Origin: a virus
Lineage: Duplodnaviria; Heunggongvirae; Uroviricota; Caudoviricetes
IMG/VR virus record: IMGVR_UViG_651053023_000011
Span: 1-41,897 of that record
Direction: 5' to 3' (one strand)
DNA: 41,897 nt
The translations under genes were made by a program, and so were the position numbers. The notes under the pieces are model-generated. The model saw only the letters and a program-made list of their open reading frames with translations, was not told where the DNA came from and ran no database searches. Each line of letters opens with the position of its first letter. The first letter of the stretch is position 1. This document shows positions 25,517 through 25,670 of the stretch, in pieces.

Positions 25517-25591
25517 TGGAGCGGGTAGCGGGAATCGAACCCGCATCATCAGCTTGGAAGGCTGAGGTAATAGCCATTATACGATACCCGC
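25517..25591 (-). tRNA. tRNA-Gly (anticodon UCC)
   Basis: 75-nt cloverleaf ending CCA; anticodon loop CUUCCAA; closely resembles phage T4-type tRNA-Gly. Confidence 0.8.
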
Positions 25592-25594
25592 ATA

Positions 25595-25670
25595 TGGTGC
25601 CGACTACCGGAATCGAACTGGTGACCTACTGATTACAAGTCAGTTGCTCTACCTACTGAGCTAAGTCGGC
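25595..25670 (-). tRNA. tRNA-Thr (anticodon UGU)
   Basis: 76-nt cloverleaf ending CCA; anticodon loop CUUGUAA; 3 nt from tRNA-Gly. Confidence 0.75.

Follow-up and report, generated by a model that had tools for sequence, protein, structure and literature searches.

Two adjacent tRNA genes among the late genes of a phiP27-like prophage were found to be copies of the host genes thrU and glyT. The prophage DNA that was analyzed (IMG/VR record IMGVR_UViG_651053023_000011, positions 1 to 41,897) is referred to here as the window and is 41,897 nucleotides in length. In gene-by-gene global alignments (the absence of tyrU upsets an alignment of the whole operon), the Thr gene is identical to thrU of E. 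coli K-12 at 76/76 positions (100%), and the Gly gene matches K-12 glyT at 73/75 positions (97.3%), with both differences falling in a single compensatory acceptor-stem pair. That the pair is host-type in its identity and origin, and not T4-type, is in our view practically certain. Our interpretation as a whole, to which we assign a probability of roughly 60%, is that this is a host-derived thrU-glyT cassette in the late slot of a phiP27-like phage and that it functions in codon supply.

The tRNA pair and its setting in the late region

Both tRNA genes are on the minus strand and their order of transcription is Thr, then Gly. The tRNA-Thr(UGU) gene (25595..25670) is 76 nt in length with an encoded CCA. 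It is followed by a 3-nt spacer (25592..25594), which reads TAT on the coding strand and serves as the cassette's signature, and then by the tRNA-Gly(UCC) gene (25517..25591), which is 75 nt in length, also has an encoded CCA, and represents a glyT allele in which a U6-A66 pair replaces C6-G66. The first-pass annotation of this DNA had reported a Gly-UCC and a Thr-UGU gene 3 nt apart at 25517-25670, and ARAGORN and Rfam both agreed with it on that point. Each gene is full length, CCA included, with a cloverleaf and a defined anticodon, and their scores against Rfam family RF00005 (73.8 bits for Thr and 65.6 bits for Gly) are far above the gathering score of 29. In addition to sequence, anticodons, gene order and encoded CCA, the pair shares with the host genes two non-standard features, A52.C62 in the T-stem of tRNA-Thr and U13.U22 in the D-stem of tRNA-Gly.

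A gene for a Q-family late antiterminator (28958..29341, minus strand; Pfam Phage_antitermQ, 182.5 bits) marks where the cassette-bearing late region starts, and a terminator scan placed a terminator-like hairpin (28821..28790) just 3' of that gene. The upstream neighbor of the tRNA pair is an N6/N4 DNA methyltransferase gene (25836..26882, minus strand), as identified by Pfam (N6_N4_Mtase, 153.9 bits) and by the RefSeq annotation of a near-identical prophage, and the methyltransferase region has 92.7% nucleotide identity to positions 15542-17056 of phiP27. The downstream neighbor is a TerB-family gene (24517..24942, minus strand; Pfam TerB and the same RefSeq annotation), after which there are DUF3927, holins and an M15 endolysin. 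These late genes are all encoded on the minus strand, in the order Q, methyltransferase, tRNAs, TerB, holins and M15 endolysin, which is the placement of tRNA genes in a moron slot. The integrase ORF is at 40833-41897, about 15 kb from the tRNA pair, which is in the prophage interior, and the near-identical prophage is annotated in RefSeq as integrating at yecE.

The carriage of tRNA genes in a late accessory slot is a textbook trait of the prophages of Stx and lambdoid phages, and a late-region prophage tRNA pair as such is already known and ordinary. In hundreds of RefSeq genomes, as well as in several GenBank phages, annotation of this Thr-Gly pair is routine. The first-pass annotation was also correct that Ile/Arg tRNAs are usual here in Stx phages: the order in phiP27 is DNA methyltransferase, ileZ, argO, stx2e and holins, and the pair in the window occupies the slot used there by ileZ/argO and stx2e. 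The tRNA genes of phiP27 (Stx phages also have argN) and those of the window are all located on the late strand after Q and the DNA methyltransferase gene and before the lysis genes, and both sets serve codons that the host seldom uses and that are enriched in phage DNA. They differ in that phiP27 has Ile/Arg tRNAs with a toxin gene downstream, whose codon bias those tRNAs fit, whereas the window has Thr/Gly tRNAs that are toxin-less and fit the phage backbone. No ORF for stx or another toxin was found 3' of the pair in the window, where there is instead a non-coding structured segment with terminators; a downstream toxin is a non-essential trait of this class of lambdoid/Stx late-region tRNA cassettes.

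Proposed codon supply and competing functions

Comparison of codon usage revealed that, of all 61 codons, ACA has the largest and GGA the second-largest absolute excess in the phage over the host. With phage genes taken from ORF calls and a host reference of only 79 K-12 genes, ACA was present at 17.3 per 1,000 codons in the phage versus 6.0 in the host (2.9x; Fisher p 1e-20) and GGA at 16.3 versus 7.1 (2.3x; Fisher p 2e-18). These data agree with the first-pass suggestion that the tRNAs support phage codon usage. To our knowledge, glyT is a single-copy gene and the sole reader of GGA. ThrU is the only tRNA with a UGU anticodon in strain MG1655, in which it decodes ACA (PMC12445682).

We propose that, upon induction, the increase in prophage copy number would provide more of the two limiting tRNAs, ThrU and GlyT, and that their greater supply would enable faster translation of phage genes. 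A putative promoter belonging to the cassette, together with the two terminators downstream, would permit expression in the lysogen as well. That the tRNAs are expressed and charged, and that they benefit phage yield, is what we infer. Counting against codon supply, there are larger fold excesses for AGG (9.8x), AGA (4.2x) and AUA (2.3x), none of which is served by the cassette. The phiP27 backbone, moreover, has the same skew (ACA +9.6 and GGA +8.8 per 1,000), yet the tRNAs of that phage are Ile/Arg and match its stx2e cargo, indicating that backbone codon usage alone does not set which tRNAs fill the slot.

The expression signals around the pair bear on a reading that is compatible with a lytic role and that we consider rather unlikely, namely lysogenic conversion, in which a moron transcribed autonomously from the repressed prophage would raise host ThrU and GlyT and thereby improve the translation of AT-rich genes gained by horizontal transfer. 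A consensus scan identified two promoter-like sites (25729..25809, minus strand) in the AT-rich 165-nt gap 5' of the tRNA-Thr gene. The first (25756..25729) has TTGAAA and TAATAT separated by 16 nt, with a GC-rich discriminator (TCGCACCC) after it, and the second (25809..25781) has TTGAAA and TATATT separated by 17 nt. On the 3' side, a terminator scan identified two hairpins in tandem that have T-runs and resemble intrinsic terminators (25153..25132 and 25104..25087, within 25077..25153, minus strand) and that would close the tRNA/RNA unit before the TerB gene. Some E. coli genomes have matches to the cassette at up to 6 places, and small RNAs with autonomous expression are known from the moron site 3' of PR' (PMC4104026). 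However, each promoter is a consensus match only, only ~21 of 147 loci share the stretch 5' of the tRNA-Thr gene, and many cassette loci have other tRNAs directly 5' of the pair.

A counter-defence function, in which the cassette replaces tRNAs that defence nucleases have destroyed, is improbable. The clearest such nuclease is P2 OLD, although other anticodon nucleases are possible. P2 OLD kills lambdoid-infected cells by cutting ThrU, with tRNA-Thr(UGU) as its primary target, and phage tRNA-Thr(UGU) genes are able to rescue the infection, including that of the lambdoid phage 21, which is in an equivalent slot (PMC12445682). In phage 21, the tRNA-Asn and tRNA-Thr(UGU) genes are located right after Q, pR' and a terminator and before the holin gene. 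Also in favor of such a function, replication-amplified gene copies could raise tRNA supply, and the glyT anticodon stem (UCAGC/GCUGA), together with A37, has a paired CNG motif, which leads us to predict that tRNA-Gly would be a secondary OLD substrate.

Resistance to OLD, however, takes two changes together, alteration of the CNG motif and shortening of the anticodon stem, and an extra host ThrU provides little to no protection (PMC12445682). The anticodon arm of the Thr tRNA in the window is ACUGA/CUUGUAA/UCAGU, with a UGU anticodon, and it keeps the paired CNG motif. Its sequence is that of ThrU, with CUG at 28-30 and CAG at 40-42, so the motif is unaltered, and its A27-U43 pair is intact, so the stem is not shortened. 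The Thr21 tRNA of phage 21 is OLD-resistant and has an altered and shortened anticodon stem (PMC12445682): it has UCG/CGA at the motif and a mismatch at G27.A43, and its identity to the Thr tRNA of the window is only 70.5%. Its partner is Asn, without a companion hairpin, where the partner in the window is Gly. As the initial collection scans held the thrU anticodon arm fixed, they were blind to escape variants. Rescans without the anticodon-stem constraint, in which position 28 or position 30 was forced to differ, yielded 0 cassettes that lacked C28 and 1 that lacked G30. In the 42 alleles, the anticodon loop of the Gly tRNA was invariant, and we are not aware of a nuclease with Gly(UCC) as its target. 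Because the copy in the window retains exactly the anticodon stem that P2 OLD cuts, the evasion of tRNA-targeting defences that had been put forward in the first-pass annotation is unsupported.

Spread, selection and origin of the cassette

The cassette was found on at least 119 IMG/VR contigs and at 30 places in species-representative genomes, and the spacer is TAT in 107 of 117 viral copies. Among 5,426 complete E. coli genomes, cassette-type matches were present at 6,574 places in 5,420 genomes, with ~1,150 of these places being beyond the chromosomal locus. Of 149 cassettes, 30 have the U6-A66 allele of the Gly gene. The cassette is spread over different phage backbones and genera, its TAT spacer unchanged; it has a single origin and is widely spread. 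In ARAGORN calls, the pair was often observed to extend arrays with Met(CAT) and Arg(UCU) or Lys(UUU), and the Met(CAT) call may represent an AUA-reading Ile tRNA similar to the ileZ of a P27-like prophage. Searches of the literature by name (thrU, glyT and prophage; tRNA-Thr, tRNA-Gly and lambdoid) returned nothing relevant on this cassette.

The 42 distinct alleles were compared for evidence of selection on the tRNA structures. In these alleles, 94.6% of the cloverleaf cells are paired, in comparison to 24-54% when partners were slid, and four pairs have double compensatory changes (26 cells versus 6.2 expected, a level that 0/500 shuffles reached). These compensatory changes indicate that the cloverleaves are under selection. 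It is, accordingly, very improbable that the pair is a non-functional passenger that is now drifting, whether as a relic of imprecise excision or specialized transduction of the tufB-region tRNA operon or as a tRNA fragment from an att site, the last of which was the alternative raised in the first-pass annotation. Near-identity to the host genes does have the look of a recent capture. However, tyrU and all spacers are cleanly gone, the same TAT spacer recurs across backbones and genera, and the stem substitutions are compensatory far above chance. Completeness (both genes have their CCA), position (interior, ~15 kb from the integrase end) and covariation led us to reject an att-site fragment or relic.

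The host operon has the order thrU-tyrU-glyT-thrT, with tufB downstream, and is chromosomal. Between thrU and glyT there are 209 nt in the host versus 3 nt in the window, where tyrU and both spacers are missing, the pair is in the late region of a prophage, the Thr-then-Gly order is kept and the Gly gene has U6-A66. The host bases next to the two genes are a T directly 3' of thrU and AT directly 5' of glyT, and the TAT spacer is, therefore, what would remain if tyrU and the spacers had been cleanly deleted and these bases kept. Around the pair in the window, tyrU, thrT and tufB are absent and the flanks beyond 1-2 nt are without homology to the host operon, which indicates that the cassette is derived and is no mere chromosomal segment. 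We propose that thrU and glyT were copied from an enterobacterial operon and that tyrU and the spacers were lost, leaving TAT, in a cassette that sits in the late accessory slot, 3' of Q and the methyltransferase gene and 5' of the lysis genes. With flank homology limited to 1-2 nt, deletion from the host operon is a putative route of origin, and against it there are bacteria, such as Photobacterium, in which Thr and Gly genes are natively adjacent.

The first-pass annotation had instead placed the pair nearer to T4 than to the host isoacceptors, with acquisition from a virulent T-even-like phage, and had named identity to host tRNA genes as the result that would speak against this; such identity, complete for Thr and at all but two positions for Gly, is what was found. 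The anticodons are indeed those of T4 tRNA-Gly and tRNA-Thr, close packing is typical of phage tRNA clusters, and the resemblance is real (86.7% identity for Gly and 81.6% for Thr, including a shared unusual D-arm in tRNA-Gly), but an origin in a T-even-like phage is barely credible, as the host genes are much nearer, the T4 order is Gly-Pro-Ser-Thr and not Thr, 3 nt, Gly, the anticodon stem of T4 tRNA-Thr is CCUCA/UGAGG versus the host-like ACUGA/UCAGU of the window, and hundreds of T-even phages match the pair only at ~85% and in two pieces, whereas temperate coliphages match it at 93-99% in one piece. On the sequence comparison, the head-to-head identities already refute a T4-type pair. The resemblance noted in the first-pass annotation is explained by the T4 genes themselves being 82-84% identical to the host genes. 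The T4 cluster (Gln-Leu-Gly-Pro-Ser-Thr-Ile ... Arg) is similar to the cassette in that it also has Gly(UCC) and Thr(UGU), both readers of codons that end in A, at close spacing, and in that rnaC and rnaD, small stable RNAs whose function is unknown, come after its tRNAs, as a companion RNA comes after those of the window. It differs in being a set of eight tRNAs, in a different order, in a virulent phage, with 82-87% identity and a different Thr anticodon stem.

A structured RNA downstream of the pair

The gap of 575 nt on the 3' side of the tRNA-Gly gene contains a conserved, non-coding, strand-specific structured RNA with covariation (25395..25201, minus strand, ~200 nt). It is separated from tRNA-Gly by a poorly conserved linker (25396..25516, minus strand), which is 110-129 nt in length across loci. 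Its first part, hairpin 1 (25303..25395, minus strand), was identified with a covariance model and a pairing test and has ~34 bp with many G.U pairs. The covariance-model score of this hairpin was 97.5 bits in the sense direction versus 31.3 bits in the antisense direction, and 98.3% of its cells are paired versus 32-55% with slid partners (0/500 shuffles reached this value). The second part, domain 2 (25201..25299, minus strand), was predicted by RNAalifold to have a 6-bp closing stem (25299..25294 with 25206..25201) around four hairpins. In 13 distinct sequences of domain 2, 5 of its 30 pairs have double compensatory changes, and at one pair of the closing stem 7 sequences have U-A and 6 have C-G. 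The companion RNA is present at a set distance of 110-129 nt 3' of tRNA-Gly in 61 of 149 cassette loci, and in 425 of 5,426 complete E. coli genomes (~8%), where it is almost never annotated.

A coding role for the gap was rejected. This is because its two ORFs, 25470..25192 (minus strand) and 25237..25413 (plus strand), are broken by stops and frameshifts in homologs; neither ORF had likeness to gene L27 of phiP27. Searches of Rfam at gathering and relaxed thresholds, with the window and 12 homologous loci, assigned the companion RNA to no family. Matches to mir-983 and mir-92 reflect hairpin shape only, and a match to STnc100 was too weak (19.5 bits versus a gathering score of 47). Several non-coding RNAs are linked to tRNA genes, including the 3' external transcribed spacer of glyW-cysT-leuZ, which acts as a sponge for sRNAs, and GOLLD and ROOL, which are carried by phages and are often located beside tRNA genes. 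The companion RNA is like these in being a conserved structured RNA that is apparently co-transcribed 3' of tRNAs on a mobile element, but it is much smaller than GOLLD and ROOL and matches neither of them, nor the glyW-cysT-leuZ spacer, nor other Rfam families. It is also unlikely to be one of the anti-sRNAs AgvB and AsxR that are known from this prophage slot, which are set apart by their length of 51-60 nt (PMC4104026).

Tentatively, and at somewhat less than even odds, the mobile unit could be tripartite, with tRNA-Thr and tRNA-Gly joined by an undescribed RNA that has a 34-bp hairpin and a five-helix junction and that potentially represents a new prophage RNA family coupled to tRNAs. Possible roles for the companion RNA are as an RNase III processing and release module, with which the tRNAs would be liberated from the lengthy late transcript, or as a regulatory RNA derived from the trailer.

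Overall, our data correct the origin story for this tRNA pair, in that its donor was the host operon and not T4. The trailing RNA, which is unannotated and present in ~8% of complete E. coli genomes, merits experiment. The cassette duplicates ThrU, the target of OLD, in a sensitive form, whereas phage 21 has a resistant form in the same slot. This contrast between sensitive and resistant forms would provide a clean natural test of codon supply versus defence evasion in the long-standing debate on phage tRNAs.

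Host origin of the fused tRNA pair

The 41.9-kb window contains, by ARAGORN, two tRNA genes and no others. Both are minus-strand genes, tRNA-Thr(UGU) (25670..25595) and tRNA-Gly(UCC) (25591..25517), which scored 73.8 and 65.6 bits with the Rfam tRNA model (threshold 29 bits). They lie 3 nt apart, with the coding-strand spacer TAT, and the 3' CCA is encoded in each. The observation of a tRNA pair is therefore confirmed, and the first-pass annotation, which gave no strand, was accurate as to its coordinates, anticodons and spacing.

That annotation had traced the pair to a T4-type, T-even source. 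In global alignments, performed one gene at a time, tRNA-Thr was identical to Escherichia coli K-12 thrU (76/76) and tRNA-Gly nearly so to glyT (73/75), versus 62/76 (81.6%) and 65/75 (86.7%) for the T4 genes; the annotation itself had named identity to host tRNA genes as evidence against its proposal. The two tRNA-Gly differences, C6 to T and G66 to A (linear numbering), together replace a C-G pair of the acceptor stem by U-A. The T4 genes themselves resemble the host genes (81.6% and 84.0% identical), which accounts for the perceived likeness to T4, including the odd tRNA-Gly D-arm, which is identical in host glyT.

The window keeps the Thr-then-Gly order of the host operon, thrU-tyrU-glyT-thrT-tufB, unlike T4, in which the order is Gly-Pro-Ser-Thr. 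The junction, ACCA-T|AT-GCGGG, combines the K-12 base after thrU with the two bases before glyT, which would fit a clean loss of tyrU along with the two spacers (three such bases would match by chance about 1 time in 64). In the GenBank phage collection, the fused pair was found in one piece, at 93-99% identity, in the temperate coliphages vB_EcoS-683R6, phi467, 606R7, 689R5, PhiR47_1, SerU-LTIIb and JLK-2012, whereas hundreds of T-even phages matched at ~85% and in two pieces. Matches to the pair at 95-99% were found in 5,420 of 5,426 E. coli genomes, via chromosomal thrU and glyT. On these sequence comparisons, the host origin of both genes is established, and a T4 origin is ruled out by the closer host identities, the gene order and the two-piece T-even matches. 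The fallback suggestion of an att-site fragment is wrong, as the genes are full length and ~15 kb from the integrase.

Spread, selection and genomic setting of the cassette

A pattern scan for a thrU-like Thr gene followed within a few bases by a glyT-like Gly gene located the cassette in at least 119 IMG/VR contigs and, among species-representative genomes, at 30 places. Four of these places fell in a single E. coli genome and four in a single Shigella flexneri genome; others were in Citrobacter, Enterobacter, Serratia, Buttiauxella, Cedecea and Yokenella. In Photobacterium the matches, probably chromosomal, belonged to Ser-Thr-Gly arrays spaced by 7-8 nt. Among the matches listed, the spacer was TAT in 107 of 117 viral copies, which argues for a single origin of the cassette and later spread; the pair stood alone in 52 viral loci and ended longer arrays in others (Met(CAT)-Lys(UUU)-Thr-Gly in 35, Met(CAT)-Arg(UCU)-Thr-Gly in 14). 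The 154-nt pair matched 6,574 places in 5,420 complete E. coli genomes (maximum 6 per genome), ~1,150 of them beyond the chromosomal locus. A genome labelled E. coli DH5alpha (NZ_CP026085.1) has, in addition to that locus, a 100% identical fused pair at 2580650-2580803, which may belong to a prophage of this laboratory strain. As a finding the cassette is ordinary, being common and annotated already.

Across 42 distinct alleles, 94.6% of cloverleaf cells were paired, versus 24-54% with slid partners, and double compensatory changes affected four pairs (26 cells versus 6.2 expected, a value reached in 0 of 500 shuffles). Only two non-standard pairs were invariant, and both are found in the host genes as well. 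Kept pairing and compensatory changes oppose the idea that the genes are decaying relics; judged from these alleles, they are probably working tRNA genes, with cloverleaves under selection.

Related arrays also showed altered anticodons. Phage SerU-LTIIb (KU052038) has two tandem tRNA pairs, and the first includes an annotated tRNA-Arg (1122-1194) that is a thrU derivative (71/76 identical) with UGU changed to UCU (G35C), plus A31G; a Thr backbone has apparently switched its anticodon here. The duplicated block in that phage comprises the tRNA pair, the companion RNA and the holin region. In the four-gene arrays of loci L013, L012 and L130, Thr-Gly follows Lys(UUU) or Arg(UCU) genes. These are close variants of each other and start with CC instead of G in the ARAGORN calls, which suggests a second anticodon switch within one backbone.

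The window is, by alignment, a phiP27-like prophage (61% of 17000-41897 covered at 93.9% identity), and a near-identical tRNA region occurs in the E. coli O141:H4 P13-6 prophage, integrated at yecE. On the minus strand, the Q antiterminator (29341..28958), a small ORF (27317..27033) and an N6/N4 DNA methyltransferase (26882..25836) precede the tRNAs. The 575 nt between tRNA-Gly and TerB (24942..24517) hold no credible gene, and DUF3927, holins, an M15 endolysin, terminase and structural genes lie 3' of TerB. In phiP27 the order is Q, GIY-YIG nuclease, L23, methyltransferase, ileZ, argO, stx2eAB and holins. The same slot is thus occupied by Ile/Arg tRNAs, as the first-pass annotation had correctly described as usual, and stx2e in phiP27, and by Thr/Gly tRNAs without a toxin gene in the window.

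Other features of the window were observed. In the Q-methyltransferase interval, a complete OmpC/PhoE-type porin gene (27687-28769, plus strand; Pfam Porin_1, 498 bits) replaces the GIY-YIG nuclease gene and opposes late transcription; it lacks ATA, AGA and AGG codons altogether, a usage that seems host-like. The TerB-family and DUF3927 genes, which separate the tRNA unit from the holins, are absent in phiP27, recur beside the cassette in another backbone (locus L162), and look like further accessory genes of the same slot. In the early region, a C4 antisense RNA (Rfam, 83.3 bits) lies directly 3' of the isrK Hfq-binding RNA (58.8 bits) at 33801-33989, minus strand; this P1/P7-type antirepressor control module is also present in locus L082.

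The AT-rich gap 5' of tRNA-Thr contains predicted promoter-like sites, including, on the minus strand, TTGAAA, 16 nt, TAATAT and then a GC-rich discriminator, and tandem terminator-like hairpins are predicted at 25153..25132 and 25104..25087 (minus), within 25077-25153. With these signals, transcription of the unit could both start at its own promoter and arrive from upstream with Q-modified polymerase.

Codon supply and defence evasion

Support of late-gene codon usage, one of two functions proposed in the first-pass annotation, fared well. Codons in 43 window ORFs (10,615 codons; 26 late-region and 17 other prophage ORFs) were compared with those in 79 annotated K-12 genes (29,449 codons). 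ACA rose from 6.0 per 1,000 codons in the host to 17.3 in the window (Fisher p 1e-20) and GGA from 7.1 to 16.3 (p 2e-18). By absolute excess these two codons rank first and second of the 61 sense codons, and the excesses hold in late-region and other prophage genes alike. In the host, glyT is single-copy and the sole known reader of GGA. ThrU is the sole UGU tRNA of MG1655 (PMC12445682). The phiP27 backbone has the same skew (ACA +9.6, GGA +8.8 per 1,000), yet carries Ile/Arg tRNAs, which fit its stx2e cargo (ATA 44.6, AGA 24.8 per 1,000), and by fold excess AGG, AGA and AUA exceed ACA and GGA in the window. This suggests that the slot takes whichever rare-codon tRNAs arrive, which makes the codon match supportive, not specific. 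Overall, codon supply is the best-supported proposal for what the cassette does, with a match that is clear and not exclusive.

Evasion of tRNA-targeting defences, the other proposed function, is not supported as an explanation of the cassette allele. Phage tRNA-Thr(UGU) genes, that of lambdoid phage 21 among them, do rescue from the P2 OLD nuclease, whose main target is tRNA-Thr(UGU), whereas additional host ThrU protects little or not at all; resistance requires that the CNG motif be altered and the stem also shortened (PMC12445682). In phage 21 the equivalent slot, directly after Q, pR' and terminator, contains tRNA-Asn and tRNA-Thr, and the Thr arm, GUCGC/GCGAA, has UCG/CGA and a G27.A43 mismatch (the gene is 70.5% identical to thrU). 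In contrast, the window arm, ACUGA/UCAGU, has CUG/CAG and A27-U43, exactly the host form, and fails this published sequence rule. Rescans of the collection in which position 28 or position 30 was forced to differ from the thrU arm found 0 cassettes altered at position 28 and 1 at position 30. These unaltered arms, with a Gly anticodon loop invariant in 42 alleles, indicate that the cassette family keeps the sensitive form. We infer that the glyT stem also bears a paired CNG motif with A37. An altered CNG motif was found in a single cassette (L158, IMGVR_UViG_2563366804_000001, 7873-7962), in which T replaces G30 and leaves an uncompensated mismatch in the Thr anticodon stem; this may reflect damage or an initial move towards OLD escape.

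A structured RNA accompanying the pair

A stretch of 200-330 nt directly 3' of tRNA-Gly is common to about 60 of 147 loci. ORFs in this segment are broken in homologs, its nucleotides are 75-90% conserved, and in the window its folding energy is -91.5 kcal/mol for the transcribed strand versus -70.1 for the other. Conserved pairing defines a 34-bp hairpin 1 (25395..25303, minus), whose cells are 98.3% paired across 12 distinct sequences versus 32-55% with slid partners. In this hairpin, 16 of 34 pairs vary on one side, mostly via G.U, and two show compensatory change; neither its pairing nor its covariation was equalled in any of 500 shuffles. Domain 2 (25299..25201, minus), a closing stem with four hairpins in a five-helix junction, has compensatory changes in 5 of 30 pairs.

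A hairpin 1 covariance model gave 65 sense matches of 52-108 bits (28-47 bits for the antisense of the same sites) and no match in phiP27, phage 21 or T4. The distance from the tRNA-Gly CCA was 110-129 nt in 63 of these 65. The companion RNA was found in 61 of 149 cassette loci, accompanies the pair in three phage backbones (twice in phage SerU-LTIIb), and is hardly ever annotated. In E. coli it was located at 553 places in 425 of 5,426 genomes, with 39 of the places on plasmids. A diverged copy (52 bits) lies ~95 nt after a gene annotated 'tRNA-OTHER' on the 145-kb plasmid pUTAK-5-1 (NZ_CP157153, 4833-5228), among IS fragments.

No Rfam family matched the companion RNA, which on this comparative evidence is a conserved, non-coding, strand-specific structured RNA. 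A long, near-perfect helix just 3' of tRNAs in a long late transcript loosely suggests an RNase III processing module. The companion RNA lies outside the original tRNA finding and is the most novel item of this analysis.
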